64,000 nt of DNA from positions 4,560 through 68,559 of the forward strand of contig CAYHNG010000002.1 of the NCBI GenBank assembly GCA_964357975.1. The letters run 5' to 3'. Source of the DNA: an uncultured Pseudomonadales bacterium (GTDB lineage: Bacteria > Patescibacteriota > Microgenomatia > UBA1400 > MFAQ01). Of the stretch, positions 29,480-62,280 are shown piece after piece. Below the pieces are notes generated by a model, which was given only the letters and a program-made list of their open reading frames with translations, ran no database searches and was not told the origin of the DNA. Within the stretch, counting starts at the first letter, position 1; each line of letters opens with the position of its first letter. A program made the position numbers and the translations under genes.

Positions 29480-29718
29480 TAATTTAGTATAGATGATTTG
29501 TACTTTTACCTTTTTGTTTATTTCTGTATATACGTTTCTTTCTATTGTTTTCTGGCCTTGTTAACTTTTTTACTCTGTGCCTATTTTATCTACTATTCTG
29601 TTATTACTTTCTACATGTGAAAATTATTGGCTGCGATTGATTAGACTTATTCACATTCGTTTTTGACCACAAGATCATCAATAGTATTGCTTTGAAATCC
29701 GTGAAAATTTATGGAAAG

Positions 29719-35648: not shown

Positions 35649-35852
35649 ACACGTGACTGGTGAGTATTATACCTGATAAATGTCCGGAGCGAATGGATGG
35701 TAATTTTGATGGAGACCAATAAGGAACCTCCTCGCAGGACTACCTACAAGGAAGATCCTTGTAGGGGAGCTGGATTTGTGATGTGGATAGTATTATTCTT
35801 TTTGGGTAATTTGGGGGTTGTAAAAATGTGGATAAGTAGTGAGAATGGGCGT

Positions 35853-37550: not shown

Positions 37551-37759
37551 TAATGGAGGCCGATAAGGATTCACCTCGCATGGTTACATACAAGGAGAAT
37601 CCTTTGGTAAGGGAATCGAGATGAATGAGGTTATAGAATAAAAATACATATACAATAGGGAACTGATAAGAGCTTGCTCGTCTTCTTTTCAATAACCTTG
37701 TTATTGAAATATCCAGACTGTGCTTCCTCTTATATTCGCTTACAACTTCGTTATAATGC

Positions 37760-45196: not shown

Positions 45197-46201
45197 TTAG
45201 ATGGCTTGAATTTTAAGAGGTCGAATAATGGCTCCGGAAAGGTCGAGAGAGTATGGGGAAAAAGTAAAATCTTCTTTTTCGGCCAGGATTTGATAAAGGC
45301 CATTTTCCAAAGGGCGGGCAAACATAAACTGGCCGAGTTTGTTACTTTTGGTAGCTCGGGAGGTGAGTCCGTTGTGTTGAATTTCCACCAGGACTCCGTC
45401 GAGAATTTTTCCTTCCGGGGTCAGAGTCAGGCCGACAAGAGTGTTGGGGGTCGTAGGGGTGAAAGGAATGGGGAGCTGGGCTACTTGGGAAGTTGTTGGT
45501 TCAGGGTTGCTGGTTATTTCAACCACAGGCTGATCTGCCTTTGGCTGAGGTGCGGGTGTGATGGAGGGGGATTTCTCCACTACGGTCGAAATGACGGGAG
45601 TGACTGACGCGGTGGGGGTGGGTGTAACGGATTCCGGTAGAGGAGCATTTGGGGTGATGATGACAGGAGTGATTTGGACAACGGGGGGTGACGTAATAGG
45701 GGTTGTGGAGTGAGATTCCTCCACTCGGGTACCAGCGGCCTCCGCTCCCGCCTGCAAAAGCTGTGCTTTAGTGTCTGCGGGCAAGTCGGTCGGAATGACA
45801 GATGGGGAAGTATCGGTGACACCAGTAGAGAGCTCGATACGAGCGTTAGAGACGGCTTGAGTACCAATATTGGGTCCGGTAGGTAAGGCCATATCCTCAT
45901 CTACTACTTTGGAATGTCTCCAAATATATTGAGTAGGTGAATAAATTGAGCGGATAAAAGCAAGAATCCAGACATCCAAAGAGCGTCCTTGAACCGGGAC
46001 AAAAGCCATACCTACTCCAAGAACAATAAAAAGAAAGGAGAGTGGATACTTAAAGAAGAAAGGCAATGGCAAACTGTAAATTACGATAGCCAGAACAATA
46101 GAGATGCCAAGTGAGGCGAACTGTTTGATGGTCATGTCACCGATCAGGCGGAAGCGGTAGGAACTGATGTCTTGTGGTAGTGGATGTTGTTGGATGGCCA
46201 T
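45197..46201 (-). CDS. PrgI/VirB3-like two-TM protein with long Pro/Thr-rich extracellular tail; contains two in-frame family-A repeats
   Basis: N-terminal FRLIGDMTIKQFASLGISIVLAIVIY...LSFLFIVLGVGMAF (PrgI-like two-TM module). The tail includes the repeat-encoded segments TPVISTVVEKS and SVIPTDLPADTKAQLLQAGAEAAGTRVEESHS. Confidence 0.45.
   Translation of the reverse strand: MAIQQHPLPQDISSYRFRLIGDMTIKQFASLGISIVLAIVIYSLPLPFFFKYPLSFLFIVLGVGMAFVPVQGRSLDVWILAFIRSIYSPTQYIWRHSKVVDEDMALPTGPNIGTQAVSNARIELSTGVTDTSPSVIPTDLPADTKAQLLQAGAEAAGTRVEESHSTTPITSPPVVQITPVIITPNAPLPESVTPTPTASVTPVISTVVEKSPSITPAPQPKADQPVVEITSNPEPTTSQVAQLPIPFTPTTPNTLVGLTLTPEGKILDGVLVEIQHNGLTSRATKSNKLGQFMFARPLENGLYQILAEKEDFTFSPYSLDLSGAIIRPLKIQAI
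45562..45600. repeat. Family-A repeat, copy A7 (in frame inside the PrgI-like gene)
   Basis: GGAGGGGGATTTCTCCACTACGGTCGAAATGACGGGAG. Confidence 0.65.
45705..45800. repeat. Family-A long variant, copy A8 (in frame inside the PrgI-like gene)
   Basis: GTGGAGTGAGATTCCTCCACTCGGGTACCAGCGGCCTCCGCTCCCGCCTGCAAAAGCTGTGCTTTAGTGTCTGCGGGCAAGTCGGTCGGAATGACAG. Confidence 0.7.
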
Positions 46202-46506
46202 GTCGTAGTGCGAAGTGCTTGGTTATTGGTTGCTGGTTCGATGAGTCTAGTTAAGTATATCTTGTCTGGTGGAATTTGGGAAAAATATTCTATATATCTG
46301 CTGAGTTAAAATGTTAAGATGAGAGTGAGATGCAATTTTTGTTGTGCAATTACAGATGGAAAGTTTGGAACAAGTTTTTTTATCGGGAGTTCGATGATGA
46401 TCTGGACTACGATGCATCAATTGATCCTCGCAAACTACATAATAAAAAAAGAACAAAGAAGAAATTTGAGGGGGGGAAAAAGGGAGGAGTTAAACGAGGA
46501 GAAGAG

Positions 46507-48579: not shown

Positions 48580-48615
48580 TATAATTGAGGCTGAGATTAG
48601 ATATATTTTTCAAAA

Positions 48616-50886
48616 ATGACTGAACACAATGAAGCCACGAACGAACATGAAGAGGAGAGAATTGCGGAGAGTTTGGCTGATCCGGCCGCACAGGCAGAGG
48701 CGACAAGGATAATAGGTCAGGTGAATGTGGTGCCGGAGGCTCGTAAGAAATCTTATATAGACAAAGTATTGGATATGCCAGCAGGTGAAAAGCGTGACGC
48801 GTTGTTGGCAGGATGGCTGGATAAACACGGGGAGGAGGCCGATGAAGGCCTGCAGGGGCGGGTGTTCGCGGCCATAGGGCAGAGAGAGGCGGCTCTTCCT
48901 CCAGTGATTGACTGGTCCAGAGCAGAAGAAAGTTTTGAAAAGTTAATAAGCCCCACTTCATACGGTGGTAACCCAGAACAAAAGAAAGCTGCGGCAGATA
49001 GATGGTTGGATTTATACGGTCGACATGAAAGTGTTACAGTTGAGATGCGCGAGCAGTTGGAGAAAATAATTAATCCAGAAACCGAATTTTCGGATGATCT
49101 AAAAGAATGGATTAGAAATTATTGTCTGGAAAGTGTTTTTGAAAGAGGTGAAAGAAACTATCGAACAATATTAGGTTCACTTGTAAATATGGGTGGCGCC
49201 CTTGATGCTGAACGTAATATTCCTTTAGATAAAATTAATCTTCTGAAACCGCAAATTCAAGAGCTAGTGGAAGCTTTGGGTTTGGATAATTTTATTAGTA
49301 TTCGAGGAGTTGTAAGTGAGTGGGACGGCCTGAAGAAACTGGAGGAAATTACCTCTTCAACATTGAAATCAGCTTTGTTTGTACCAGAATATACAGAACG
49401 TTGGGTTGAGGGTGACTATGATAAGGATGACAACCGAATCGGTGATCGGATGGTCACCTTGCCGGGTGAGAATGGAGTGGCAAAAAACATGCAAGAAGAG
49501 GTAAGTAAAGGTATCTTGGCCCTTAAAAACTTTTTTGACAACAATGAATATTGGGATTTTGTGGGTGTGTCAGCAGACAAAAGGACAAAACTCTATAAAC
49601 AATTAGGATTAAATAAATATGTCGGTGAGGTGGCGTTTGCAATGGGAATGTCAAATTTAATCTTTACCGAAACTAAAGGTACAAGTTTGGATCCGTTTTT
49701 GTTTATGGTTCACGGAGATACCAAAAGGAGAAAATCCAGAGAGGTTGCTGTGGACAGAGAGGTAACAGCAATGGCTTATGTGCAATTTCAAATGGCAAAC
49801 AAAGACAAAAGCCCTAGCCCGGATGAAATTGAGGTTTGGCTTTCCCAACACTTTCCTAGCCATCTGATTCCCACTGGACTCTCGGCGGGAGGAATGGCGG
49901 CATTGGAGAATGGAAACTGGTTGAAATGGAGGGTACAAGAGAACCTTTTTTCAGCATCTCAGAGAGCGATAGATATTACTTATGAAACAAATAAAGATTA
50001 TTGGATAGCCATTGCAAATGCAGGATTTGACGTTGGTGGGGTGATTGTAAAATGGACGGCGGATGAAGTTCAGTTAGAGTACGATAGAAAGAAAAGAAGA
50101 ACAGTAATTGGAGCCAAGGGGAGATTGACAGAGGATGAGGGAAAGATGAAGGGCCAAAAAGCGATTGAGAAACAAAAAGATAAGGAGTGGAAGGCATTAG
50201 TCAATGCTGTTTCCGAGTCGCCAGAAGTGCAGATAGCAACAGATACTGAATCAAGAATAGAAGAAATGAAAACGGCTTTGGATTTACTTGTAGCTTTGAA
50301 GGAGGCCTTAAGACCAGAATCGGATATAGATAAATTGGCCGCTCTAAAGTCCAAGAGTCTTATTCACTGGAAAACATCCATGAAAGCAGCTGGACGAGTC
50401 GATGTAAAAGATATGGTAAGCGAAGAATTTTCTTTTATTCCGGGACAAAAACAGAGTGTAGATGAATGGGTGTCAACAGCAATGTTAACTTCATGCCAAT
50501 CATGGTTGCATGCACATTCGATTGCAAACTTCAAGAACCCTAAGCCACTCGATATGAAGACACTGGCGGAGAAAATGGAACAAATATTAGCTACGGATGT
50601 ACAAACTCCAGACATACAGGCTTATATTTGGACCGGAAAAGATACTGAGAAAACAGAACCTCTGTTGGCAAACAAAAGAGCGTACATTGATTACGCTACA
50701 GATCTCTGGGAGGACTGTTTCGACGTGATCGATAAAATAACGAGGAATGTCACGCCAGATAAATATCCAAAATGGTGGCGTTCTGGTGTGAGTGCAGCAT
50801 CAGGGATAGCAGATCTGGCTGCTAAATCATCCCCATTCTATCCACTGTGGAATACTATAGCGAAAAGACTAAGAAACAGAGCATAG
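48616..50886 (+). CDS. Large acidic hypothetical protein (756 aa), T4SS-linked orphan
   Basis: Long ORF with no TM helices or recognisable motif. Co-directional with 46507-48579. Confidence 0.5.
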   Translation: MTEHNEATNEHEEERIAESLADPAAQAEATRIIGQVNVVPEARKKSYIDKVLDMPAGEKRDALLAGWLDKHGEEADEGLQGRVFAAIGQREAALPPVIDWSRAEESFEKLISPTSYGGNPEQKKAAADRWLDLYGRHESVTVEMREQLEKIINPETEFSDDLKEWIRNYCLESVFERGERNYRTILGSLVNMGGALDAERNIPLDKINLLKPQIQELVEALGLDNFISIRGVVSEWDGLKKLEEITSSTLKSALFVPEYTERWVEGDYDKDDNRIGDRMVTLPGENGVAKNMQEEVSKGILALKNFFDNNEYWDFVGVSADKRTKLYKQLGLNKYVGEVAFAMGMSNLIFTETKGTSLDPFLFMVHGDTKRRKSREVAVDREVTAMAYVQFQMANKDKSPSPDEIEVWLSQHFPSHLIPTGLSAGGMAALENGNWLKWRVQENLFSASQRAIDITYETNKDYWIAIANAGFDVGGVIVKWTADEVQLEYDRKKRRTVIGAKGRLTEDEGKMKGQKAIEKQKDKEWKALVNAVSESPEVQIATDTESRIEEMKTALDLLVALKEALRPESDIDKLAALKSKSLIHWKTSMKAAGRVDVKDMVSEEFSFIPGQKQSVDEWVSTAMLTSCQSWLHAHSIANFKNPKPLDMKTLAEKMEQILATDVQTPDIQAYIWTGKDTEKTEPLLANKRAYIDYATDLWEDCFDVIDKITRNVTPDKYPKWWRSGVSAASGIADLAAKSSPFYPLWNTIAKRLRNRA

Positions 50887-50892: not shown

Positions 50893-52731
50893 TTAGTTGC
50901 CGGAAACTGTCTTCTGGGCTTCTGGGATATTAATATTAGTTCCACCGATTACTGGTCTGGTTGAGGCGGAAGGTCCACCATATGCCCCACCAAGACTGTT
51001 TCTTAGACTACGAGGCAAGCCGGAGTATCCTGTTTTTGCCCATGATTCGTTAACATTAACTCCTGTTTTGAGGGCTTCGCCAATGGCGGCGCCGTAGGGG
51101 AATGGAGGTGTCTTGAGGGCTTTTTCGACCATTTCGCAGTACTTGCTGGACATCATTAGTAATCCAAAACCAATGGTAGCAAGCATAAGGCTACCAACTG
51201 AACCGGTCCACGTGCCGGTTGATACGTTTCCGGGAATGGTTAATGGAGGCGTCCAGATATTACTAAGGGTGGATAGCTGATTTACTCCAAGAAGATTTTC
51301 CAGCCCGGAGGTTATCCATCCAGTAAGTGGGCCTCCTGCGGCGGCTAAAGATAGTAGTGGCTGGCACATAAGTGCATATGAAAGAGTGAGAAAGAACATA
51401 GCCACCGGAAAGACGGCGAGGTTGCCGTAGATGCTTCGTAGCCAATCTCCAAAAGAAGTGGAGCCGGGAAACAAGTTACCAAGAAGTAGAATGGGGGCAA
51501 AAATAAGATTAATAATAACTCCAAAATAGGCCTGGAAAAGCTTCATGATTAGTTTGAAATAGGAAATGGCGACGGCAATCATAATAATTATCCCTATGAC
51601 GATCCCAAACCAATTAATCAAATAAACACCAACAAGGGCGGTGATTATTCCGAGAAAACCTCCGATGATTAAGTTGAATAAAACGAAAGGAGACACCATT
51701 ATAGCAACAAGCATGTTTACAAACCACGATCCAAAAGCTCCAAGCACGCCCTGACCACTGACCGTATTGATCATATCCTCTCCGACTCCTGATCCGAAAC
51801 CGCCCGAGTTGAGGATAGCTTCGTTACCTCCAATCCTCAGAATGTTGATGGCCATTGCGCCAGCGATTGTAGAGATATCTACCAAAAAGCCAACGATAGC
51901 ATAGGAGAAAGTAATCATGAGGAGGGTGGCGATGAGCTTGGGAATAGCGAGCTGAATGGTGGCGGCGGTTTTGGAGTCTATCTTGATTCGAAACATAATC
52001 ATTATCCCATAAAGAACGAAACCGATAGCAAAAAGCATGTAAGCAATGTTTCTAAAGGCACGCCAGAGAGGAAGAATCGGGGCGAGAGCGGAGAAACCAT
52101 AACCGGGTCCGGCCGCATAGGTATCGCTGATAATGTGGTGTTTTTGAAGATTAGAGGAAATATAAGTTAAGTAATCATATGTACCGGCAGGCCTAGAAGA
52201 TATAAGGCCGGTGGCGAATTTTCCCAACTTGCCGATTAGACCTCCCGGTGCTGTGGGGCTGTAAGCAAGGTCGCTGATTTTTGTATTAATGGTGACGGGT
52301 TTACTTTTTAGTTGCTCGAACATTTTTAATGAGTTCTTTATGGAATCTAGGAAATTATCATGTGGATTGGTAAACATCAAAGTACTCCACCATTCCATGC
52401 CTTGAAGGATGACAATATCAACAAAACCAACTCCATCACCACTCAGCGAATCGACACCGGGAGCACATTTGCCGGAGTACCAAGTTTCCAGATTCATAAG
52501 GTCTCCGGAACGTTTATCGCAGAATTCTTTGACGTAATCCTGTATGCCTTTTGATCCAGGTATACCAAAAAGATTCGGAGTCGCAGCCGCCGCGTTTGTG
52601 TAGGGAACTATGATAGCGGAAATAGTTATGAATACGGATAGAAATATGAGGCTGAGAGATTTTTGAAGAAGGGACATAGCTAGAAAAATTATACAGGAAA
52701 ATGACACACCTGGGTGGAGTGAGATTGCCAC
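50893..52731 (-). CDS. VirB6/TrbL-like polytopic membrane protein with N-terminal extracytoplasmic domain
   Basis: Signal peptide, roughly 200-aa soluble domain, then at least 7 TM helices rich in Gly/Ile. The location fits a T4SS channel subunit. Confidence 0.45.
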   Translation of the reverse strand: MAISLHPGVSFSCIIFLAMSLLQKSLSLIFLSVFITISAIIVPYTNAAAATPNLFGIPGSKGIQDYVKEFCDKRSGDLMNLETWYSGKCAPGVDSLSGDGVGFVDIVILQGMEWWSTLMFTNPHDNFLDSIKNSLKMFEQLKSKPVTINTKISDLAYSPTAPGGLIGKLGKFATGLISSRPAGTYDYLTYISSNLQKHHIISDTYAAGPGYGFSALAPILPLWRAFRNIAYMLFAIGFVLYGIMIMFRIKIDSKTAATIQLAIPKLIATLLMITFSYAIVGFLVDISTIAGAMAINILRIGGNEAILNSGGFGSGVGEDMINTVSGQGVLGAFGSWFVNMLVAIMVSPFVLFNLIIGGFLGIITALVGVYLINWFGIVIGIIIMIAVAISYFKLIMKLFQAYFGVIINLIFAPILLLGNLFPGSTSFGDWLRSIYGNLAVFPVAMFFLTLSYALMCQPLLSLAAAGGPLTGWITSGLENLLGVNQLSTLSNIWTPPLTIPGNVSTGTWTGSVGSLMLATIGFGLLMMSSKYCEMVEKALKTPPFPYGAAIGEALKTGVNVNESWAKTGYSGLPRSLRNSLGGAYGGPSASTRPVIGGTNINIPEAQKTVSGN

Positions 52732-53375: not shown

Positions 53376-56300
53376 TTACTGTCCGCAGGAAAAGGTGTGA
53401 TACGGGTCGAGGACGTCTTCTTTGTAAGTATCCAAGGGGGGATATATCCCATTTTTCCCTGTTTCCGGACAATAACCGGCGTAGCTAATGTGACTTTGAA
53501 GAACTGTAGCGTCGGTCCATGCGCTACAAGAACCGGGAATGGAAGTATTGGTCATAGGGAGTTCAAAACAAGTATCGCTGGTAACTGTGGGTGGTAAATA
53601 GGCAGCCCCTCGTGAAAGTGCTTTTGCCGTGGCAGCGGCGGCATCAAGTAAGTTGCATGGAGAGATATTTTCCTTTGTTCTGGTTGGATCGATTTTTTGA
53701 ACGGCGGTCCAATTTGCAATCTCACCTTCTCCTTCCCAAAAGTAATAAGGTCTCCAACCAAATCCGGCTATGGATATATTACATGATCCAGAACTACTGC
53801 AGGCTTCGGCACTATACATAGCCGGGTCACACATTTGTCCGTCTGCAATAGGCATGGCTCCACCGCAGATGGCCCACTCTTTTGCGTTGGCATCGGTCCA
53901 TGTAAGGAATGAACGATTAAAGGCCCCTTCGTGAAGCATGACTGCTAAAACACTAGATGGAGGAACGCTAAAGGTACTTCCTACAGTTTCCAAAATATCT
54001 TGTAAAGTCTTGGGAATTTTTTCAGGAACCTGGCTTTCGTGAACGTAACGAGTGAACTGGGTAATTTTGTCGGTATTACACAACTTGCAGGAACCTCCTT
54101 TGAGAAACGAAAGATCCGTACTACAGACCACTGGCGGAGTGGGAGTAGGGAGGAGGTAACAGCGGGGGGAGTTTTGGAGTTCTTTGGGGACGGTCCAACA
54201 ATTTTGCAGGAGATGCATAGAGTCTTGGGCGAGGTTATTTACTCGATTAATGGGTTCGGCTGGATTGAGGATGTCGGAGTTGCCATTGGGTCCGGTGGAG
54301 GTGGCACCTGCGTCGACACCATCCACACGGTAGGAGACGAAGTGTCTGGCGATGGGAGCGTCGATACTGGCATTGACGGTTTTGTCCACGCCATCCGGGA
54401 GGATCATCTTGTAAAAGGAGTATTGATCGTTGTTGGCAACTGTTTCCTTTATGTCGGTATGTTTGGGATTGTTAAGAACATTTAAGGTTTTACCGTGTGA
54501 AATTCCTTCTACAGTCCATCTCATCCGACAACACTGTCCTGATTTTTGATCTTTATATCTACCCTCCCACTCATTGATGGGACAGACGCCGTACTCGATC
54601 CAACAGTGACCATTATCGTCACATTTTTCTTTTTCGGTTGGTGGATGACATTGGGGGTCGTAGTTCCAGGAAAGTTTGTCGCCCCGAATTGAAAGCACTT
54701 GGTGATGGTCGTCGGCCGGCCTTTGATTTGGATCTCCGCGATCGCCAGCAGCGGTTTTTGGTGCAATTAGATGATAACTGACAGGGAGGGGACAGGTGAT
54801 ATTGGCATAGCCGTCTTTTACTTTTTCATTTAAGTTGTCGATTTCATTTTCGGTATAGCCAACCTTCTTCAATTCGTCGTTGGTAAAGAGATCGGTGACT
54901 TTGTTCCATAGCCAGCCAAAGGGGTTGGTGACGATGGCAATAGTCTCTTCTTTCACTCGTTCCAAAAAGCCTTTCTGGGCAAGTTTTACTTCAGGCAGAG
55001 ACAAAAGAGTGTTTCCGATTCTGTAGTCCGAGATACCACTTGGGCTAGCATATTTATCAACGATCCATTGTGGTTGAAGAGCGGGGAACATGCCAAACTT
55101 GGGTGAAAGTAGCCCTTGGTAGATAGCCCCAACGTAGGGAACACTTTCTCTGGAAACGTTGGTAAGACCAGGTTTATTTGTACCATAACGACCCGCATTG
55201 TCCTCGTCAACCAGATATGGTGCCCAAGGATAATCCCCGTAATACGACTCTTCTTTTTCGTCTTTCTTTTTGACGATGTAACTTCTAGTGCCGTTGAAGT
55301 CTAATGGTACGAAAGCGGCGTATGGACCGTCGAGATCATTGCCAAAGGCACTGATGGCGGCCTCGTAAGCCAAGATTGCAGTGTCGGCAAGAAACCCCAA
55401 GTCCAAATCAAGAGCCAGCTCTCGGAGTTCCTGAAACATGGGCTTCAGAGATTCGGTGGCCTGGGCGTATTCGGGACAGACGGGATAGTCGACAAGACAG
55501 CCAACACGGATAAATGGCCAATGCCAAAAGAGAATTACTTGTTTACTTAGGGCATTGTAGAGTTTTTTAAAGTCGGTTTTCTTCTTGAGACCATTTCGAT
55601 CGACAAAATCGAAGTTAATGTTGTCGATTTGATCTTTGTTGGCCATGTTTAGGACAAATGATCGAAGATTGGCTTGGTTGGAGGCCGGGAGTAGCCGCCA
55701 GTAGGTCCGATAGGCCTCGCGAGTAGGATGACCATCGTTACCGGCATTGTTTTGTGGATCGTAGCTGTCTGAAAGATCCATGGGGCGACCAAAAAGTGAA
55801 GTATAGAGATAATTTTGAGCAATAAAATCAGCTGAGTAACTAGCTTCGGTGTCTGGGCTGGGACCGTAACTGCCGGTTTCGGCTTCGCGGACGTCGGTGT
55901 AGACGAGCATGGCGATGAGACATTCAGGATCTGTTCCTCCTGGTGCAGGTGTTCCGTCCGGCGCTGCCCCACCAACACCGCATTTAGTAAATGGCTGGTC
56001 TATACTTGGAGATAAAGAGTTCTTATATCTCTTGGCAGTGTAATGGGCAATAGGTTCGTAAATACAAGTTCGCTCATACTGCATAATATCTACTTGAGTA
56101 TTTTGAAAGTGATTCCAACAGCTACTGTTTGGTGGAAAAATACCGTTTTGAGACCCCAACTGTTTCCAGCAGTCTTCTGGAACATCTGGGTTGTCTCCGA
56201 TAGGAGTAATGGGGTCGTCAATGATGGATTGAGGTACGCAGTGGAGATCGAGATCCATGGGATACTTGATGCAAACTTCTCCCGCAAGACACATGGTGTT

Positions 56301-56465
56301 GCCACAGGTGACACCAACCGGCGGGCCGGGATTTGGTTCCGATGGAGATGAGGATGGTGAGGGTGATGGTGTAGGTGGTGGTGGAGGGGGGGCGGCTAGA
56401 ATGACCTTATCCAGAAAGAAATATAGAAAAATAAATATTGAGACAATAAAAACAAATTTCTTCAC
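53376..56465 (-). CDS. Large secreted Cys-rich protein (about 1030 aa): poly-Pro linker, Cys-rich domains, C-terminal lysozyme/SLT-like segment (tentative)
   Basis: Start preferred at the GTG at 56465, giving MKKFVFIVSIFIFLYFFLDKVILAA signal peptide then PPPPPPTPSPSPSSSP. The track TTG start at 56561 would overlap pilin gene 1 by 64 nt. C-terminal VLAVMLHEGAFNRSF...GGAMPIADGQ has a weak SLT-like look. Confidence 0.45.
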   Translation of the reverse strand: MKKFVFIVSIFIFLYFFLDKVILAAPPPPPPTPSPSPSSSPSEPNPGPPVGVTCGNTMCLAGEVCIKYPMDLDLHCVPQSIIDDPITPIGDNPDVPEDCWKQLGSQNGIFPPNSSCWNHFQNTQVDIMQYERTCIYEPIAHYTAKRYKNSLSPSIDQPFTKCGVGGAAPDGTPAPGGTDPECLIAMLVYTDVREAETGSYGPSPDTEASYSADFIAQNYLYTSLFGRPMDLSDSYDPQNNAGNDGHPTREAYRTYWRLLPASNQANLRSFVLNMANKDQIDNINFDFVDRNGLKKKTDFKKLYNALSKQVILFWHWPFIRVGCLVDYPVCPEYAQATESLKPMFQELRELALDLDLGFLADTAILAYEAAISAFGNDLDGPYAAFVPLDFNGTRSYIVKKKDEKEESYYGDYPWAPYLVDEDNAGRYGTNKPGLTNVSRESVPYVGAIYQGLLSPKFGMFPALQPQWIVDKYASPSGISDYRIGNTLLSLPEVKLAQKGFLERVKEETIAIVTNPFGWLWNKVTDLFTNDELKKVGYTENEIDNLNEKVKDGYANITCPLPVSYHLIAPKTAAGDRGDPNQRPADDHHQVLSIRGDKLSWNYDPQCHPPTEKEKCDDNGHCWIEYGVCPINEWEGRYKDQKSGQCCRMRWTVEGISHGKTLNVLNNPKHTDIKETVANNDQYSFYKMILPDGVDKTVNASIDAPIARHFVSYRVDGVDAGATSTGPNGNSDILNPAEPINRVNNLAQDSMHLLQNCWTVPKELQNSPRCYLLPTPTPPVVCSTDLSFLKGGSCKLCNTDKITQFTRYVHESQVPEKIPKTLQDILETVGSTFSVPPSSVLAVMLHEGAFNRSFLTWTDANAKEWAICGGAMPIADGQMCDPAMYSAEACSSSGSCNISIAGFGWRPYYFWEGEGEIANWTAVQKIDPTRTKENISPCNLLDAAAATAKALSRGAAYLPPTVTSDTCFELPMTNTSIPGSCSAWTDATVLQSHISYAGYCPETGKNGIYPPLDTYKEDVLDPYHTFSCGQ

Positions 56466-56497: not shown

Positions 56498-56854
56498 TTA
56501 GGTGCCAAATTGGGTAACCTTGGCACCGGTAAAGTTCTCGATGAGAACTAAGGCCAGCCAAACCACCGCGAGGAGAATCAAGCCAATAACGGCCCAGGTA
56601 AACATGGAATAGGCACTGGCGACTGCTTTGGGTTCGGCGCCGGCGGAGATCAAACGAATTCCGGCCATAATGATTATTCCGACAGCAACGAGAGCCAATA
56701 GGGCAGGGATGGGTTGAAGAATGTTTTTAAAGAGACAGGTGATACCTTGTATCGAAGCGACATCGGTAGCATCGACTCCAGCAACATTTTGACCAACACA
56801 TTCTCCAGTCCAATTACTGGCGGCATAGACTTGGGAGACGAGTTGGAAGGACAT
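56498..56854 (-). CDS. VirB2/TrbC-like pilin paralog 1 (divergent, 2 Cys)
   Basis: Leader MSFQLVSQVYAA|S, two hydrophobic helices, loop ISAGAEPKAV. Confidence 0.5.
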   Translation of the reverse strand: MSFQLVSQVYAASNWTGECVGQNVAGVDATDVASIQGITCLFKNILQPIPALLALVAVGIIIMAGIRLISAGAEPKAVASAYSMFTWAVIGLILLAVVWLALVLIENFTGAKVTQFGT

Positions 56855-56903
56855 AAATATATTTTACATTGAATATTTCGGATTGTATATTTTTTTCTTG
56901 GAT

Positions 56904-56997
56904 GGTTCGAAGTGCGCAAAATATCGTACTCGACCTCCGTCCCTCGAGTACGAGTGCGGATCCGCTCCGTGCGAAATTTTGCTTGCCCTTCTGCACC
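56904..56997. repeat. Family-C direct repeat, copy C1 (about 95 bp, nested palindromes)
   Basis: GGTTCGAAGTGCGCAAAATATCGTACTCGACCTCCGTCCCTCGAGTACGAGTGCGGATCCGCTCCGTGCGAAATTTTGCTTGCCCTTCTGCACC, about 93% identical to C2. Contains GTACTCGA...TCGAGTAC and GCAAAAT...ATTTTGC stems. Confidence 0.75.
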
Positions 56998-57027
56998 ATT
57001 TGGTAGTCATAACAAAAACCGCCTGAC

Positions 57028-57086
57028 GGTGGAGTTTTTGTATGAGATTGCTTCAGCTCGAATACGAGATTCGCAATGACGAAGTG
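57028..57086. repeat. Family-A-like repeat, copy A10, with adjacent weak terminator hairpin (3' of pilin gene 2)
   Basis: CCGCCTGACGGTGGAGTTTTTG then GAGATTGCTTCAGCTCGAATACGAGATTCGCAATGACGAAGTG. Confidence 0.5.
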
Positions 57087-57087
57087 C

Positions 57088-57429
57088 TTAGTAAGGTTTG
57101 GGGATGTTGATATTTCCCTCGAAGACGTCGACACCGAAGAAGTAGGCGATGAGTTTCATGAGAGCCCAAGAGGCAGCGACGATAGCGAGACCAACGACGG
57201 CGGCGGTGATACGATTTCTGGCTTGTTCTGTTTTACCTTTATCTCCACCGGAGGTAAGCCATTCAATACCTCCCATGACTAGAAAGGCAAAGGTAAGAAT
57301 ACCGGCTACGATGAAGGCGAGAGAAATGACTCTACTAATAAGAACACCAATGTCGGTGATCTTCATTCCGGTTGGTTGGGGAACTCCAATGGTTCCGGCG
57401 GCGGCATAAGCTTGAGAAATTAGGGACAT
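57088..57429 (-). CDS. VirB2/TrbC-like pilin paralog 2
   Basis: Leader MSLISQAYAAA|G, TM1, loop LTSGGDKGKTEQ, TM2. Confidence 0.55.
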   Translation of the reverse strand: MSLISQAYAAAGTIGVPQPTGMKITDIGVLISRVISLAFIVAGILTFAFLVMGGIEWLTSGGDKGKTEQARNRITAAVVGLAIVAASWALMKLIAYFFGVDVFEGNINIPKPY

Positions 57430-57496
57430 ATTTTTTGGTTTTTTAATAATTATTTATTCTATTACTAATTTAGTATTATACCCGTTATTGAGTTTG

Positions 57497-57856
57497 TCAA
57501 TTGCCGAGAGGATTTTCGGTACACAGAGCATCCAAATTAATTCCGAAAAACTCAAGCACAATCATATAGACCGCATAACTGGAGGCAACGATGGTGAGGC
57601 CAATAAGGGCGGCCGATATCATCTTTTGGGAGGATTCGATCTTACTTTTGTCTCCACCGGAAGTGAGCCACTGGACTCCACCCATGACGAGGTAGACGAA
57701 GAAGGCGACTCCAGAAATAATGAAGGCAGCACTGACTAGATTACTGACGAGATGGCCGATACAGGTATAACCAAAGAAATTATTTTTAGTGGCCATTTCT
57801 CCGATGGGAAGAGTAATATCAGCAGCCAATACCTTAGGAATTATTTTTGGGATCAT
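57497..57856 (-). CDS. VirB2/TrbC-like pilin paralog 3
   Basis: Leader MIPKIIPKVLAA|D, loop LTSGGDKSKIE, 2 Cys. Confidence 0.55.
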   Translation of the reverse strand: MIPKIIPKVLAADITLPIGEMATKNNFFGYTCIGHLVSNLVSAAFIISGVAFFVYLVMGGVQWLTSGGDKSKIESSQKMISAALIGLTIVASSYAVYMIVLEFFGINLDALCTENPLGN

Positions 57857-58203
57857 AAGGCGCTTGGAAATACCGGTTTAAGAATATTAATTTTGAAGAC
57901 TTGTTGGATAAAGTAGGTGACCGCATAAGAGCCGACCAGTATTCCAATGCCGATGACAGAGCTGGTGATTTTTTTTTGAGCATCATCAATTTTGGCCTTG
58001 TCACCTCCGGAGGTAAGATATTCTATACCTCCCCAGACAAGATAAATAATGAAGGCGACTCCTCCAACGGTGATGACTGTCTGCCAAAGAGTGGCAATAT
58101 AAAAGGCAAGACCGCCTCCTGGGTCCTGAGGTATTTTGGGCGACAGTGCCTTATTGACAATTTCGTTGGCGGCAAAAGCAGTAGGTATTATTTGAAAGGC
58201 CAT
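57853..58203 (-). CDS. VirB2/TrbC-like pilin paralog 4
   Basis: Leader MAFQIIPTAFAA|N, loop LTSGGDKAKID. ATGA overlap with paralog 3. Confidence 0.55.
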   Translation of the reverse strand: MAFQIIPTAFAANEIVNKALSPKIPQDPGGGLAFYIATLWQTVITVGGVAFIIYLVWGGIEYLTSGGDKAKIDDAQKKITSSVIGIGILVGSYAVTYFIQQVFKINILKPVFPSAL

Positions 58204-58208
58204 TTTGT

Positions 58209-58577
58209 TTAGAGTTTTAGTGCATCAAATGGATTAAGAATGTCGAGACCGAGAACGGCTCCGACGATGCCAATAATAAAGAAGGAGGCGACGATAGCGA
58301 TAAGGCCAATAGCCGCTTGGGTCATTGAGGTTTGAGCTTCCGAGACCTTTGCCTTGTCTCCACCAGCTGTAATCCATTTTAGACCACCCATGGTGAAATA
58401 GATGACAAAGGCCAAACTGCCGACAACGGTAATGGTGGTGATTAAATTAGAAAGAAATGTTCCCAAACCACTTTGGACACCTCCACTGATGCCTGTTTGA
58501 AAAGGGCCAATTCCTCCAACTTCACTGCCTAGTGGGATATCGGCGGCGGCAAGGGCTGAGGAAATAAATGTCATCAT
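58209..58577 (-). CDS. VirB2/TrbC-like pilin paralog 5
   Basis: Leader MMTFISSALAAA|D, loop ITAGGDKAKVSE. Confidence 0.55.
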   Translation of the reverse strand: MMTFISSALAAADIPLGSEVGGIGPFQTGISGGVQSGLGTFLSNLITTITVVGSLAFVIYFTMGGLKWITAGGDKAKVSEAQTSMTQAAIGLIAIVASFFIIGIVGAVLGLDILNPFDALKL

Positions 58578-58580
58578 AAT

Positions 58581-58946
58581 TTAGATAGATTTTAATTTAG
58601 GAGCCAAGATTGCTCCAAAGTCTCCAAAGAGGACCTTGCTGACGATGGCAATAATTAGGAAACTAGCGGCAATAATGACTAGCCCCACAAGACTCATGGT
58701 GATTTTATTTTGAGCTTCAGTTAGTTTACCTTTGTCTCCACCGGAGGCAATATAGGCAAGTCCACCAGTGAGGAGTTGCCAGAGAGCGAAGACTCCGGCA
58801 ATAACTACAATGAAGCGAACTAGGGCAGAGATGATATCTGTGGTCTGAGTGGTTTCCTTTGGGATGCCTGCGGGAAGGTCGATGGTACCTATTACATTCG
58901 CGGCTAGGGCTGACTTGGCGAATAATGTGTTTAGTATATTGATCAT
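58581..58946 (-). CDS. VirB2/TrbC-like pilin paralog 6
   Basis: Leader MINILNTLFAKSALAA|N, loop IASGGDKGKLTE. Confidence 0.55.
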   Translation of the reverse strand: MINILNTLFAKSALAANVIGTIDLPAGIPKETTQTTDIISALVRFIVVIAGVFALWQLLTGGLAYIASGGDKGKLTEAQNKITMSLVGLVIIAASFLIIAIVSKVLFGDFGAILAPKLKSI

Positions 58947-58949
58947 AAA

Positions 58950-59273
58950 TTAAAAGAATTTAAAGCCAATAATTGCCCCCATAACTCGGGTGATTAGGAA
59001 AGCGAGAACAATGAGGATCAGACCAAGTATTCCATAGTTTAGCATGTTCTGAGCTTGTTCGGTTTTGCCTTTGTCACCACTTGCAGTGATATAGTTGAAA
59101 CCAGCCAGGATAATGACGATAAAGGCCATGACGCCGGAAATTATTAGCACATTGGAGATTAGAGGGTTAATAAGGTTGGCCAATGTGGCCCCACTACCGC
59201 CGACATTCAAGGCTTTGCCTGGAGCATAGAGATTTTCCAACGATTCTGCCGCAAGGACAGTTTTGATAACCAT
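58950..59273 (-). CDS. VirB2/TrbC-like pilin paralog 7
   Basis: Leader MVIKTVLAA|E, loop ITASGDKGKTEQ. Confidence 0.55.
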   Translation of the reverse strand: MVIKTVLAAESLENLYAPGKALNVGGSGATLANLINPLISNVLIISGVMAFIVIILAGFNYITASGDKGKTEQAQNMLNYGILGLILIVLAFLITRVMGAIIGFKFF

Positions 59274-59302
59274 ACTGCCATTTTACAGTAAAATTAGACA
59301 CT

Positions 59303-60415
59303 ATGGAAACAAACAAGCTTGGGCGGTGGGCAAAAGAAAAATTAATCGAACTGGCATCCGAAACAGATGCGAGACTGGAAAAATATTGGGATAAGGAGAT
59401 AAAGAAGGACTTTGGTTTTAACAAAACGCAAAAAGAATTGGTGAGAAAAATGCTTTTGCATGCCAGAGAACACAACCTCAGATCGGCCAAAAGAGCAAGG
59501 GCGGGATTCGTAATTTATGGATATCAGCTGGGCAAAGAACCTGATCACTTAAGGAAGCAAGAACTCAAGACAGAAAAAGAAAAAGTGTGGAGGGCGGCGG
59601 AAGGGATAGAGTTGATTCACACGGCTCTTTTAATGCACGATGATTTTATGGATGGGGATAGGGTAAGGAGAGGAGGTCCGACGACTCAGGAATTTTTTGG
59701 TAAGGTAGACACACATTATGGAGATACGATGGCCATAAATGTCGGTGATGCAATTCTGTGTATGGGGTTTGACAGACTATTGGAGTGTAGCTCCGAGGGA
59801 GAAAAGACCAGACAGGTTATGAAACAGGTGTTCAACGGAATAACTCATACAGCCTTTGGGCAGGCGTATGATCTGAGTTTGCCAAAATTGGGAGAGATGA
59901 CGGAAGAAAAGGTGATGAGTTTGCACAGAGCAAAAACAGCTATTTATACTTACGAGAACCCATTATTGATTGGTGGAATTCTGGCTGGATTAACAAAAGA
60001 GGTTTTGGAAATCTTGCGAGATTATGCCACCGATGGAGGAATTGCGTTCCAGCTGCAAGACGACATTTTAGGTGTTTATGGGAACGAGGAAAAAACCGGA
60101 AAATCAATTAACTCGGATTTATTGCAGGGCAAGGTAACCCTTTTGGTAGTTAAAGTGATGGAAACGGGGACAAGGCAACAAAAAGAAAACTTGTTGAGAA
60201 TATGGGGAAAAAAGCAGGCGGAGACAAAAGATATCGATGCGGCGAAAGAAGCAATCAGAGATAGTGGGGCATATATGTATTCGGTAAAGGTGGCGAGAGA
60301 GTTGGCCGAGAAATCGGCTCGGACAACAAACAGATTGCGGGGGAAAGGATTAAACGATGAAGCAATTAACTATTTGGAAGGGATTGCGAGGTATATGGTG
60401 GAGAGAGAGGTTTAG
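59303..60415 (+). CDS. trans-Isoprenyl diphosphate synthase (polyprenyl synthetase family)
   Basis: FARM LMHDDFMDGDRVRRG and second Asp-rich region FQLQDDILGVYG. Confidence 0.8.
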   Translation: METNKLGRWAKEKLIELASETDARLEKYWDKEIKKDFGFNKTQKELVRKMLLHAREHNLRSAKRARAGFVIYGYQLGKEPDHLRKQELKTEKEKVWRAAEGIELIHTALLMHDDFMDGDRVRRGGPTTQEFFGKVDTHYGDTMAINVGDAILCMGFDRLLECSSEGEKTRQVMKQVFNGITHTAFGQAYDLSLPKLGEMTEEKVMSLHRAKTAIYTYENPLLIGGILAGLTKEVLEILRDYATDGGIAFQLQDDILGVYGNEEKTGKSINSDLLQGKVTLLVVKVMETGTRQQKENLLRIWGKKQAETKDIDAAKEAIRDSGAYMYSVKVARELAEKSARTTNRLRGKGLNDEAINYLEGIARYMVEREV

Positions 60416-60428
60416 AGTCTCACTTTTC

Positions 60429-60523
60429 GGTTCGAAGTGCGCAAAATGTTGTGCTCGACCTCCGTCCCTCGAGTACGAGTGCGGATCCGCTCCGCGCGAC
60501 ATTTTGCTTGCCCTTCTGTACCG
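60429..60523. repeat. Family-C direct repeat, copy C2
   Basis: GGTTCGAAGTGCGCAAAATGTTGTGCTCGACCTCCGTCCCTCGAGTACGAGTGCGGATCCGCTCCGCGCGACATTTTGCTTGCCCTTCTGTACC. Confidence 0.75.
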
Positions 60524-60784
60524 TCGTTCGACAATACCTAATGTGACAAAGGTGAGAGTGTTTGGGAGAAAGGGTGTCCTAAGATTTATTTTATGGAAAT
60601 ACCCAGACATTGGCGCGAACAGCCAACGAGGATGAGATTTGATGGATCAGAGAAAAACTTAAAAGATTCAGAAATGAGAGTGTTTAAGTATCCCGGGGGG
60701 TCTATCCCATTAGTAGGTGATTATCAGCAGATTCGACAGCGATTTGAGAAAAGAGGTTTTAGTGAAGAAGCAACAGAGGAAATT

Positions 60785-61495
60785 TTATTTCGACTTTGGG
60801 GTGGAATCCCCGCCGAAGCGGCGATCTCTTTGGGTGAAGTCGTCAATAGCTTTCATGAATTGGTCGGGAGTGAAATCGGGGAATAAGGTAGGAGTGAAGT
60901 AAAGTTCCGAGTAGACACTTTGCCAGGGTAGGTAACCCGAGGTACGGCGTTCTCCACCGGTACGGATAACTAGGTCGGGGTCGGGCATACCGGCGGTGTC
61001 CAGGTAAGATGAAAAAATTTCTTCATTTATATTGTTTGCGGGAATCTGGTCGTTGATGATTTTTTTGATTGCACGAATGATTTCGTCCCGACCACCATAA
61101 TTAAGAGCAAAGGAGACAGTAATTTTATTGTTTTTGGAGGACTTAGAGATCATTTCCATTGATTTTTTGGCAATATCTTCAGGGAAACGGCTCATGTCAC
61201 CTAATATTTGTAGCTTTGCTCCTCGCTTAATAAATCTGAGAGCAAGGGCTCCAAAGGCAATTCGAAATATATCTAAAATCCCCCTGACTTCTTTTTCGTC
61301 TCTTTTCCAATTTTCGGTAGAGAAGGCCCAAAAGGTCACATAGGGGATACCCAGATCGACACATTTTTCGATCAGAGGTTCAATGGTGTGGTTGGCGGCG
61401 TATTCGTGACCTTTGACAGGTTCCAAACCTTGTTTTTTTGCCCAACGACGGTTGCCATCCATCATGATCGCAATATGTTTTAGTGGAAGTTCCAT
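60785..61495 (-). CDS. uppS: Undecaprenyl diphosphate synthase (cis-prenyltransferase)
   Basis: MMDGNRRWA and YVTFWAFSTENWKR motifs. Confidence 0.85.
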   Translation of the reverse strand: MELPLKHIAIMMDGNRRWAKKQGLEPVKGHEYAANHTIEPLIEKCVDLGIPYVTFWAFSTENWKRDEKEVRGILDIFRIAFGALALRFIKRGAKLQILGDMSRFPEDIAKKSMEMISKSSKNNKITVSFALNYGGRDEIIRAIKKIINDQIPANNINEEIFSSYLDTAGMPDPDLVIRTGGERRTSGYLPWQSVYSELYFTPTLFPDFTPDQFMKAIDDFTQRDRRFGGDSTPKSK

Positions 61496-61521
61496 GCAGG
61501 TATAAATTATACCAAAAGAGG

Positions 61522-61860
61522 CTAAACAATATTGCCCAGTCCTAAAAAGTTGGTAATGACACGTACAACTAGATAAGCGGTAAATACCATAATGAGACCG
61601 ATAAAGCTGTTTAATAGTCTTGTTGTAGCACTAGCTACCCTTTTCGGGTCCCCTGAGCTCATCATGTATTCCCAGCCGGCCATGACGAGATTAGCAAAAA
61701 AGAGAAGACCAACAATGACGAAAACAAGGGTGAGAAGGTCTTTTGATAATACACTACCAAGATCGGTGAATTTGTTGATTCCAACGACCTGGTTGATACT
61801 GTTTTCTAACCCCGTAATGTCTACTTCGTCAGCTGCCAGAACCAGATTGATTAATGACAT
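61522..61860 (-). CDS. VirB2/TrbC-like pilin paralog 8
   Basis: Leader MSLINLVLAA|DE, loop MMSSGDPKRVAS. Confidence 0.5.
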   Translation of the reverse strand: MSLINLVLAADEVDITGLENSINQVVGINKFTDLGSVLSKDLLTLVFVIVGLLFFANLVMAGWEYMMSSGDPKRVASATTRLLNSFIGLIMVFTAYLVVRVITNFLGLGNIV

Positions 61861-61863
61861 AGT

Positions 61864-62280
61864 TTATTTTAGACCGGGAAGGCTAAGAATGTTAACTCCA
61901 ATAAGTCTTAATAAAAAGACGGAAAGGATAATAAAAATTAGACCGGAAATGGCGGAAGTGATAATCTCTTGACCCTCTTTCAGCTTATCGGGAATGCCGG
62001 CTGAGGTAGTGATGATAAAGACTCCAAAGAGCATGAGAATAAGAGCTAGTCCACCCCCAAGACCAACGGCGATCTTGAAGACTGAAGTAAAAAATGACGC
62101 CCCACCGGTTTCGACTGAAGTTGATATGCAACCAAGAGCAGTATTCACTTCGTCAGTACCACATCCTGTGCTTGGACCAACAAAAGCAGCGTGTGTGGAA
62201 TGTGGGGATAGAACAATCAGTGAAACAAGAAATATGAATATGAAGTATACGAGGCTTCTCATGTAGGGTAATTTTAACAT
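61864..62280 (-). CDS. VirB2/TrbC-like pilin paralog 9 (divergent: classical signal peptide, Cys pair)
   Basis: Signal peptide ...LSPHSTHA|AF, GCGTDEVNTALGC, two hydrophobic helices with loop TTSAGIPDKLKEGQE. Confidence 0.45.
   Translation of the reverse strand: MLKLPYMRSLVYFIFIFLVSLIVLSPHSTHAAFVGPSTGCGTDEVNTALGCISTSVETGGASFFTSVFKIAVGLGGGLALILMLFGVFIITTSAGIPDKLKEGQEIITSAISGLIFIILSVFLLRLIGVNILSLPGLK

Follow-up and report, generated by a model that had tools for sequence, protein, structure and literature searches.

The 64-kb window analysed here (the whole stretch of DNA under study) is the chromosomal origin region of a member of Candidatus Collierbacteria, which belongs to the Microgenomates of the Candidate Phyla Radiation (CPR)/Patescibacteria. 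On its minus strand a group of short open reading frames (ORFs) had been predicted to encode VirB2/TrbC-like pilin paralogs of a type IV secretion system (T4SS). Nine minus-strand ORFs of 107-138 aa, named P1 to P9 here, are present exactly where the original prediction placed them. The observation is real and lies well beyond chance, and several of its details are corrected below. The nine genes are listed by position, with their PF18895 scores and the sequence of the polar loop.

56498-56854, minus strand: P1, 118 aa, 31.2 bits; loop ISAGAEPK; divergent; two cysteines at the N-tail/start of the first transmembrane helix (TM1)
57088-57429, minus strand: P2, 113 aa, 37.8 bits; loop LTSGGDKGK; conserved IPKPY tail
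57497-57856, minus strand: P3, 119 aa, 26.7 bits; loop LTSGGDK; C32 in the N-tail and C112 in the C-tail
57853-58203, minus strand: P4, 116 aa, 28.3 bits; loop LTSGGDK; weak TrbC match (E=0.59)
58209-58577, minus strand: P5, 122 aa, 29.9 bits; loop ITAGGDK
58581-58946, minus strand: P6, 121 aa, 29.2 bits; loop IASGGDK
58950-59273, minus strand: P7, 107 aa, 37.4 bits; NF045849 E=7.7e-8; loop ITASGDK; opens the coupled P7-P3 block
61522-61860, minus strand: P8, 112 aa, 41.0 bits; loop MMSSGDPK, a variant kept in orthologs
61864-62280, minus strand: P9, 138 aa, 20.0 bits (E=7e-4); divergent; Sec signal peptide …HSTHA↓AF and a short ectodomain with two cysteines

Each of the nine independently matched the Pfam family PF18895 (T4SS_pilin), with E-values from 2e-10 to 7e-4. 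Eight lie above its gathering threshold of 26.6 bits and P9 lies below it. At the level of the family, the prediction of VirB2-like T4SS pilins was borne out. A hidden Markov model (HMM) built from the nine paralogs found exactly nine members in a six-frame translation of the window, P9 among them despite its sub-threshold PF18895 score; the next match had an E-value of 0.011. In an alignment, P1-P9 share a common plan of N-tail, hydrophobic helix, polar loop, hydrophobic helix and short tail, and the two hydrophobic helices of the mature proteins are 27 and 25 residues long. An AlphaFold2 (AF2) model of P2 is a helical hairpin with helices at residues 24-59 and 64-98 and the loop SGGD (mean predicted local distance difference test score, pLDDT, 75). 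This model and the region maps of all nine agree with the PF18895 description of about 70 residues with two helices and a short polar loop. The single architecture originally proposed thus holds for the helix-loop-helix plan, and its leader details fail for P9 and P2. The short N-termini are real rather than an annotation artefact, since an in-frame TAA or TGA lies 2-9 codons upstream of every ATG from P1 to P9. Recoded stops and alternative starts were considered as a cause of the short leaders and rejected; besides these upstream stops, the other genes read normally in code 11. A type IV pilus (T4P) pilin was likewise rejected: the leaders end in Ala-Ala, there is no conserved E5, the proteins have two hydrophobic helices, and no T4P family was matched in Pfam.

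Cysteines recur in the tails of some paralogs. In P3, C32 in the external N-tail is conserved in 93% of orthologs and C112 in the external C-tail in 88%. A disulfide between them could link the two ends, which would recall head-to-tail cyclised TrbC/VirB2. P1 and P9 each carry a cysteine pair in the N-tail.

The nine genes had been described as a single tandem array. They form two blocks, of seven and two, and the 2248 nt between P8 and P7 contain two isoprenoid genes:

59303-60415, plus strand: polyprenyl synthase, not a pilin (Pfam polyprenyl_synt 7.4e-53); present in 35 of 81 loci
60785-61495, minus strand: undecaprenyl-diphosphate synthase (uppS), not a pilin (Pfam Prenyltransf 1.4e-72)

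In Collierbacteria the polyprenyl synthase shares the site between P8 and P7 with uppS. Of 81 related loci, 50 have a uppS homolog in the array or alongside it. Its place varies: the nine pilin genes of locus L047 are contiguous with no uppS between them, and in locus L001 uppS (7293-7991) again sits between P8 and P7. We know of no functional link between either isoprenoid gene and the pilin array; diderm conjugative pili contain stoichiometric lipid. A published definition of a pilin array asks for at least two pilin genes, in tandem or one non-pilin gene apart, in a genome with VirB4 (PMC12102498). Both blocks fall within it, with VirB4 at 42610-44514. Strictly they count as two arrays, because two non-pilin genes separate them.

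The predicted translational coupling of P3-P7, with short spacers and one ATGA overlap, was confirmed. The spacers measure 3 nt (P7-P6 and P6-P5) and 5 nt (P5-P4), and P4 and P3 share a 4-nt ATGA overlap. P9 and P8 are also 3 nt apart, and wider gaps separate P3 from P2 (67 nt) and P2 from P1 (233 nt). Genes that overlap or lie 3-5 nt apart imply co-expression and joint translation. Two putative expression signals flank P2, both from a consensus scan only:

57018-57032, minus strand: terminator-like element, a G+C hairpin with a T-run after it, close downstream of P2
57500-57472: promoter-like TTGACA-17-AATACT with a perfect TTGACA, upstream of P2

Comparison with related genomes provided insights into the history of the nine genes. 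A scan of one genome per GTDB species, with loci recruited by P2-derived patterns, gave 80 loci; P2 homologs came nearly all from metagenome-assembled genomes of Collierbacteria and other Microgenomates. The exact order P9-P8-P7-P6-P5-P4-P3-P2-P1 on one strand is found in 26 fully covered loci, and partly covered loci are consistent with it. Copy number stays at nine within Collierbacteria. More distant Microgenomates (Woese-, Beckwith-, Chisholm- and Cerribacteria) contain 5-10 members, whose order is about the same. The distant relative L001 contains 1:1 orthologs of all nine, 46-73% identical and in the same order; downstream lie genes for two large proteins, then PrgI, a TraC-like protein and VirB4. 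Identity of the mature proteins, tails included, is 0.48-0.73 within orthogroups versus 0.21-0.34 between paralogs. P2 is the most conserved in every locus (mature-region identity 0.73 versus 0.48-0.64 for the others). Conservation within orthogroups is lowest in the N-tails (0.31-0.65), which are externally exposed. P9 orthologs range from 112 to 397 aa, with a variable Cys-rich ectodomain (8-34 cysteines) that follows the signal peptide and precedes the pilin domain; length is stable in the other orthogroups. These comparisons indicate that the nine are ancient, individually conserved paralogs kept in a fixed order and not a recent amplification.

The loop and the tails were examined for paralog-specific features. 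The consensus [LI]TSGGDK[GAS]K had been reported in seven of the nine. It is exact in three (P2, P3 and P4) and reaches six with one mismatch allowed, the loops of P5, P6 and P7 being one position off; P1, P8 and P9 are divergent, as had been said. TSGGDK itself had not been recognised from any characterised pilin. It is a common PF18895 signature, and [TS][SA]G[GS]D occurs in 41% of 593 relatives. The loop variants are specific to orthogroups: [IL]TSGGDK in P2, [IL]TAGGDK in P5, ITASGDK in P7, MMSSGDPK in P8 and TTSAG[IM]P in P9. Variation between paralogs had been thought to concentrate in the post-leader segment and the C-terminal tail. Instead, identity is low throughout (0.21 in the N-tail, 0.25 in TM1, 0.34 in the loop and 0.28 in the second helix), although it is the tails that vary in length. 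Identities of 0.21-0.34 agree with the low mean (about 25%) by which such arrays have been characterised (PMC12102498). Net charge in the N-tails runs from -4 to 0 (acidic or neutral), and each loop contains 2-4 Lys or Arg.

The leaders also differ from their first description as 9-17 aa segments. They are short in P1-P8 (9-16 aa), and P9 has an ordinary Sec-type signal peptide of 32 aa. The end of the leader had been placed before D, N, S or E; the P2 leader precedes A or G. We compared 243 short leaders with 63 full signal peptides.

Short leaders (n=243): position -3 V/A, position -1 A in 73%, position +1 A/Q; median 11 aa; mean number of Lys plus Arg 0.6; mean maximal 7-residue hydropathy 1.4
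Full signal peptides (n=63): position -3 A/V, position -1 A in 80%, position +1 A/Q; median 26 aa; mean number of Lys plus Arg 2.1; mean maximal 7-residue hydropathy 2.8

The position-specific pattern at -3, -1 and +1 is the same in both sets and fits the classical -3/-1 rule of signal peptidase I. A dedicated Ala-Ala processing step, which had been proposed, is not called for by this ending: it is the canonical signal-peptidase-I pattern [V/A]-x-A↓[A/Q], and the 'second Ala' is most simply read as residue +1. Distant P2 orthologs begin with textbook Sec signal peptides, such as MKKFAPLASLAGLATMVTPVFA↓QN, and in alignments with the full signal peptides of orthologs the 'MSLIPQxYAA' leader covers no more than their final ~10 residues. 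P9 and the neighbouring 1028-aa secreted protein, both with full signal peptides, also use this …x-A↓A site. As judged from these alignments, the short leaders of P1-P8 are worn-down Sec signal peptides that retain the c-region, and they may still be clipped. Leader state (full, short or absent) follows lineage, not paralog. In locus L043, P2-P8 carry full signal peptides; in Collierbacteria, P1-P8 carry short remnants; and in the L001/L030/L031 lineage the Met sits directly on the mature N-terminus of P1, P3, P4, P6, P7 and P8. Among P1 orthologs the leader is short in 28, absent in nine and full in one. Because its state varies in this way, the leader is evolutionarily labile and dispensable, and special Ala-Ala machinery is unneeded. 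No Peptidase_S26/S24 gene, a candidate for a dedicated peptidase, was found among the ORFs scanned in the window.

Homologs in which several hairpins are joined in one chain bear on how the proteins are used. The nine-paralog profile, searched against 1.84 billion representatives, matched 89,407 clusters at E<=1e-3. In the top matches (P0241-P0390) a single chain contains 2-17 stretches that match the hairpin; it opens with one N-terminal signal peptide, and Met-leaders are absent from its interior. Among the top 150 representatives, 149 have at least two hairpin domains (2-11 at domain E<=1e-3). One six-domain protein lies inside a CPR pilin array (L084:1777-3435), and a 17-domain protein of 1775 aa (L083:10001-15328) has archaeal-type neighbours (ribosomal L39e, Cas4). 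In some of the fusions, the paralogs that match best are ordered as adjacent genes are (P6-P5, P5-P4, P3-P2, P9…P8). Head-to-tail fusion is topologically possible because both ends of a hairpin face the same side, and we argue from these 'Rosetta-stone' fusions that different hairpins are adjacent in one assembly. The motif '…P-x-x-A-x-A↓' is kept at some P9→P8-type junctions. A leader-like A-x-A as a generally retained junction site was rejected, with 20 of 311 junctions carrying one against 19.4±4.2 in shuffles.

How the nine relate to other pilin families was assessed with curated models. Direct membership in TrbC/VirB2 (PF04956, gathering threshold 27.9 bits), as the original prediction had it, failed for every paralog. 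The family NF045849 ('Mbov_0395 family pilin-like conjugal transfer protein', from Mycoplasma integrative and conjugative elements (ICEs)) was matched by seven of the nine, with E-values from 7.7e-08 to 1e-3. The matches of these seven span nearly all of the model, and the best score is 31.9 bits, for P7. Since these scores fall under the equivalog cut-off of 40 bits, the nine are relatives and not members of NF045849. In a set of 131 diverse array members, 128 matched PF18895, 108 matched NF045849 (E<=0.01, best 3.6e-10) and 17 matched TrbC (E<=0.01, best 3.6e-07); the next family was matched by nine. Two proteins, P0120 and the 17-domain P0289, have both TrbC and T4SS_pilin matches in Pfam. 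CPR pilins thus resemble NF045849 far more consistently than TrbC/VirB2. This link questions the statement that Gram-positive T4SS classes have no virB2 homologues, made in a 2025 survey of Patescibacteria pilin arrays (PMC12102498). Structure-based searches were less informative. Sequence-profile searches of the PDB (queries A2 and A3) gave no pilin, just a chance match to a viral glycoprotein transmembrane segment. Fold searches with the P2 model were non-specific, returning generic helical hairpins; the sole pilin retrieved was the Aeropyrum conjugation pilin 8dfu, a weak match. Scattered weak matches to unrelated membrane families were also seen.

The array adjoins a monoderm-type T4SS, whose genes start at 38862 and adjoin dnaN. 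The relevant neighbours are as follows.

12082-15561, minus strand: VirD4-like coupling-protein homolog fused to NUDIX (TrwB_AAD_bind 4e-05, TraG-D_C 3.4e-04, NUDIX 2.7e-08)
31785-32522: housekeeping yidC
35697-38878, plus strand: dnaA (35697-37235) and dnaN (Pfam Bac_DnaA 1.5e-60, three DNA_pol3_beta domains), abutting the T4SS genes
38862-39875: single-transmembrane protein of the T4SS locus, next to dnaN
39866-42607, minus strand: 913-aa membrane protein with four hydrophobic segments and a C-terminal Amidase_2 domain (Pfam 8.3e-08)
42610-44514, minus strand: VirB4-like T4SS ATPase (Pfam P-loop_TraG 3.8e-27, AAA_10, CagE_TrbE_VirB 1.5e-05)
44544-45194: 216-aa protein between the VirB4-like and PrgI/VirB3-like genes
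45197-46201, minus strand: PrgI/VirB3-like T4SS membrane protein (Pfam PrgI 1e-08), syntenic in L001 and others
50893-52677, minus strand: polytopic membrane protein, 594 aa, about seven hydrophobic segments, VirB6-like candidate
53376-56462, minus strand: large secreted protein, ~1028 aa from a GTG start, directly downstream of P1; signal peptide …VILA↓AP followed by a Pro-rich poly-Pro/Ser stretch

PrgI, VirB4 and VirD4-like genes therefore do occur near the array, and homologs elsewhere lie in the same setting: the array, the large secreted protein, the polytopic protein, PrgI and VirB4 form a conserved synteny. Neither outcome named beforehand as refuting the pilin prediction, a match to a holin- or bacteriocin-like family instead or homologs with no T4SS genes nearby, was observed. 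Published Patescibacteria T4SSs are likewise nested in the MPF-FATA class, lie near dnaA and mostly have no relaxase (PMC12102498). No relaxase was found among the ORFs scanned in this window. The 913-aa Amidase_2 protein beside VirB4 is, by its domain content, a candidate cell-wall-opening (VirB1-type) component. VirB1 is missing from most VirB2-bearing Patescibacteria in the 2025 survey (PMC12102498). The Amidase_2 domain is of the N-acetylmuramoyl-L-alanine amidase type.

The 594-aa polytopic protein is the most conserved partner, lying downstream of the array in 60 of 81 loci. A public gene call (P0392, 594 aa) is 100% identical to it. The mechanical ORF (50893-52731) opens at a GTG 18 codons upstream of the start in the public call, and the real gene is probably 50893-52677. 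The protein had no sequence match in Pfam, NCBIfam or the PDB. A Foldseek search of the PDB with its AF2 model (pLDDT 67) gave TrwJ/VirB5-TrwI/VirB6 stalk chains of the R388 system as eight of the nine top matches. These matches are weak (probability 0.72-0.98, E 0.04-0.8, template-modelling score 0.17-0.45) and do not distinguish the VirB6 from the VirB5 chain. The modelled resemblance to VirB6 by fold is suggestive, not proven. In the solved R388 system the stalk is the proposed starting point of pilus biogenesis.

The 1028-aa secreted protein has one N-terminal hydrophobic segment and no match in Pfam or the PDB. A fast-evolving homolog (24-93% identity) occupies the same position in 34 of 81 loci. 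It could act in a VirB1- or VirB5-type role; its C-terminal stretch '…VLAVMLHEGAFN…' ('…MLHEGAFN…') may resemble lytic-transglycosylase motifs. Two large non-membrane proteins (749 and 756 aa; 46330-50886, plus strand) lie between the VirB6-like gene and PrgI and are poorly conserved, with homologs in just 5-6 of 81 loci. No credible Pfam match was found for the 1028-aa, 756-aa, 749-aa, 216-aa and 337-aa neighbours.

Other features of the window are noted here. It also contains rnpA, yidC, jag, dnaA, dnaN and genes for GAPDH, PGK, TsaD, L25, GroEL and LeuRS. The VirD4-like homolog is 1159 aa long with the NUDIX hydrolase at residues 889-1019, an unusual fusion for a T4SS coupling protein. In addition to the housekeeping yidC, a second, divergent YidC-like protein is encoded at 16218-17021 (minus strand; 60KD_IMP 9.9e-13), directly followed downstream by an SPFH/Band-7 protein (15583-16194) and then the VirD4-like gene. 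Also encoded in the origin region are a protein of the RNase H/RVT_3 type (29719-30156) and one with a Bro-N domain (33472-34185). G+C content dips to 0.386 at 28001-30000 and 0.395-0.415 at 36001-40000, compared with ~0.45 elsewhere in the window; the latter dip covers dnaA-dnaN and the first T4SS genes.

Combining these data, we favour, as a reasonably probable explanation, that the nine proteins are co-expressed, specialised subunits of one heteromeric T4SS filament or envelope-spanning conduit. Each protein would enter the cytoplasmic membrane as a hairpin: its two ends would lie outside and its SGGDK-type loop, which contains Lys/Arg, inside. This topology is inferred from the charge distribution and from precedent, and would not require a full signal peptide. 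Insertion could be driven by TM1, as in small YidC-dependent proteins, and the short leaders of P1-P8, as c-region remnants, may still be clipped by a signal-peptidase-I-type cleavage. A VirB4-powered machine with VirB3 and a VirB6-like platform would then extract the hairpins and co-assemble them into the heteromeric filament or conduit, as homology, synteny, co-translation and the fused homologs suggest. P2 is the best candidate for the bulk (major) subunit because it is the most conserved in every locus and has its own promoter-like and terminator-like sites. P9 would be a distal or host-contact subunit, for which its true signal peptide and variable Cys-rich ectodomain make it a candidate.

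A stricter version can be offered tentatively: the nine hairpins may be obligate, non-redundant subunits of a single heteromeric assembly in a monoderm, with the order of neighbours mirroring the order of genes. Pointers to it are that the subunits reach the membrane with a vestigial leader or none, that the VirB2-like part appears to have been inherited with a monoderm (Mycoplasma-ICE-like) T4SS rather than borrowed from diderms, and that other lineages encode a polyprotein of up to 17 linked hairpins.

Several points weigh against the filament or conduit explanation. None of the nine reaches the TrbC/VirB2 cut-off, the best being P4 with 10.8 bits (E=0.59). The profile-profile comparison with VirB2 that the original prediction had suggested was negative: with 548 CPR array members on one side and 119 VirB2 proteins of the Agrobacterium type on the other, hhalign gave a probability below 1%, equal to reversed controls. 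This null result does not disprove homology, because the VirB2 set is narrow (effective sequence number, Neff, 3.65). The VirB6-like fold matches have weak E-values and low scores and come from a model of pLDDT 67. The promoter-like and terminator-like sites of P2 are consensus matches, and its top conservation may be slightly inflated, since loci were recruited by P2-derived patterns. Long covalent chains with as many as 17 hairpins are no less compatible with a fixed membrane ring than with an open-ended filament. To our knowledge, signal peptidase I has no known substrate whose leader is 11 residues long and has no h-region. We also know of no pilus seen on a Collierbacteria cell, and monoderm T4SSs are generally without pili.

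The strongest alternative is that the nine form a membrane-embedded ring, channel lining or stator, with one of each protein, that never polymerises outside the cell. Single chains of 2-17 hairpins are natural for a closed bundle of fixed stoichiometry, and neither monoderm T4SSs nor the Mycoplasma ICE family, which 108 of the 131 array members resemble, are known to make pili. In addition, the Gram-negative pilin is needed for transfer even without a pilus (PMC12857230). However, the TrbC/VirB2-like matches of 17 of the 131 relatives (best E 3.6e-07) and the weak fold match to an archaeal conjugation pilin point to pilus-forming relatives, and the adjoining VirB6-like platform and large secreted protein recall the VirB6-VirB5-VirB2 pilus-biogenesis module. 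We consider a ring possible but doubtful.

Antigenic or host-range variation, with interchangeable major pilins of which one or few are expressed at a time, has been suggested for Patescibacteria pilin arrays (PMC12102498) and was the other functional idea in the original prediction. The paralogs are just about 21-34% identical, the exposed N-tails are the least conserved region within orthogroups, and the P9 ectodomain is highly variable in length, all of which would suit it. Yet 26 complete loci hold the genes as 1:1 orthologs in fixed order, copy number is constant within Collierbacteria, and the tails and loop of each paralog are conserved far above the between-paralog level. Overlapping and 3-5 nt spaced genes imply joint translation, and covalent multi-domain fusions cannot be expressed alternately. 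This explanation is unlikely; orthology, order, coupling and fusions fit the heteropolymeric assembly better.

The remaining alternatives are far less probable. Secreted cargo, that is, Sec-exported soluble substrates or toxin-like subunits by analogy with pertussis toxin (ptx/ptl), was first proposed for TM7x (McLean et al., 2020; PMC7427843). The array does adjoin T4SS genes and some orthologs have Sec signal peptides, but two long hydrophobic helices with a short polar loop mark an integral membrane hairpin, the proteins belong to pilin families, and many orthologs have no signal peptide, which together leave this reading very improbable. An unrelated two-transmembrane family (holin, bacteriocin or immunity protein) resembling pilins by hydrophobicity alone is the least credible and is largely refuted: although such hairpins are generic, fold searches give generic hairpins only and weak matches to other membrane families are scattered, eight of the nine pass the curated PF18895 threshold, seven match NF045849, and different lineages retain the linkage to VirB4/PrgI. 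The PHROGs, NCBIfam and Pfam scans brought up no holin or bacteriocin family, and PHROGs gave only weak matches (E>=0.004), mostly to families of unknown function, with no holin. The sequence features and these family scans led us to reject the holin and bacteriocin readings.

Comparison with known systems places the array among several partial likenesses. To TrbC/VirB2/TraA pilins of diderms the nine are alike in being small, with two helices, a short basic loop and both ends predicted outside. They share an N-terminal A-x-A leader-peptidase site and are likewise encoded with VirB3, VirB4 and a VirB6-like gene. They differ in having leaders of 9-16 aa instead of roughly 30-50 aa, nine paralogs instead of one, and a monoderm host. 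Of the long N-terminal signal peptide typical of TrbC/VirB2, only P9 has a full one, while P1-P8 keep the A-x-A site. The Mycoplasma ICE family Mbov_0395/MMCAP2_0565 (NF045849) offers similarity over the full 80-position hairpin model and a link to monoderm conjugation. Its members are ICE conjugal-transfer proteins, whereas here there are nine chromosomal copies with no relaxase among the scanned ORFs and with a VirD4-like protein present.

As an analogy only, T4P and type II secretion pseudopili combine a conserved abundant subunit with low-identity specialised subunits, encoded together and built into one fibre. They are an unrelated family with unrelated machinery; the G↓F(M)xxxE class-III leader and a PilD-type peptidase signal are absent here. 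M13 procoat and Pf3 coat are small proteins whose insertion depends on YidC, and F-pilin TraA is reported to be Sec-independent and LepB-dependent. As a mechanistic analogy only, M13 procoat and Pf3 coat resemble the nine in their short acidic or neutral N-tail and optional A-x-A leader, and YidC genes are present in the window. The virB2 arrays of Bartonella and Anaplasma are also rows of divergent virB2-type genes beside a T4SS. They are thought to serve antigenic variation, whereas orthology, coupling and fusions argue for joint use here. These arrays have been cited as an analogy for Patescibacteria (PMC12102498).

Closest of all are the other Patescibacteria pilin arrays, such as those of Southlakia epibionticum ML1 and TM7x (six genes). 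They share PF18895, a monoderm-type T4SS (PrgI, VirB4), proximity to dnaA, ~25% identity between paralogs and enrichment in Microgenomatia. What sets the Collierbacteria version apart is its nine members, arranged in 7+2 blocks with two isoprenoid genes between them. The 2025 survey described 441 arrays in 383 assemblies, with 2-11 VirB2-like pilins in Patescibacteria, especially Microgenomatia, near dnaA (PMC12102498). It related the Patescibacteria VirB4 clade to a monoderm group comprising Firmicutes, Actinobacteria and Tenericutes as well as Archaea (PMC12102498). A 2025 review described the Patescibacteria T4SS as possibly the first pilus-forming T4SS of a monoderm (PMC12857230), and its function has been called 'completely unknown' (PMC11665869). 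Since such arrays were published between 2023 and 2025 (PMC12102498; PMC10633639), our core finding is not new. What is new here is the 1:1 orthology, the fixed order across genomes and the degenerate or absent leaders; a term search of the survey found no mention of Mycoplasma, signal peptides or orthology (PMC12102498).

In S. epibionticum ML1, the only species in which this has been tested, epibiotic growth requires the Patescibacteria T4SS together with its pilin series (PMC10633639). If the nine are indeed a fixed, co-expressed set, the target for study would be a heteromeric structure of major and specialised subunits and not phase or antigenic variation. For structural studies the fused multi-hairpin homologs could serve as constructs just as they stand, and they indicate which hairpins are neighbours. 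The degenerate leaders amount to a natural experiment on the minimal signal sequence of a small hairpin protein. Importantly, the link to the Mycoplasma ICE family bears on the origin of the Patescibacteria pilins.

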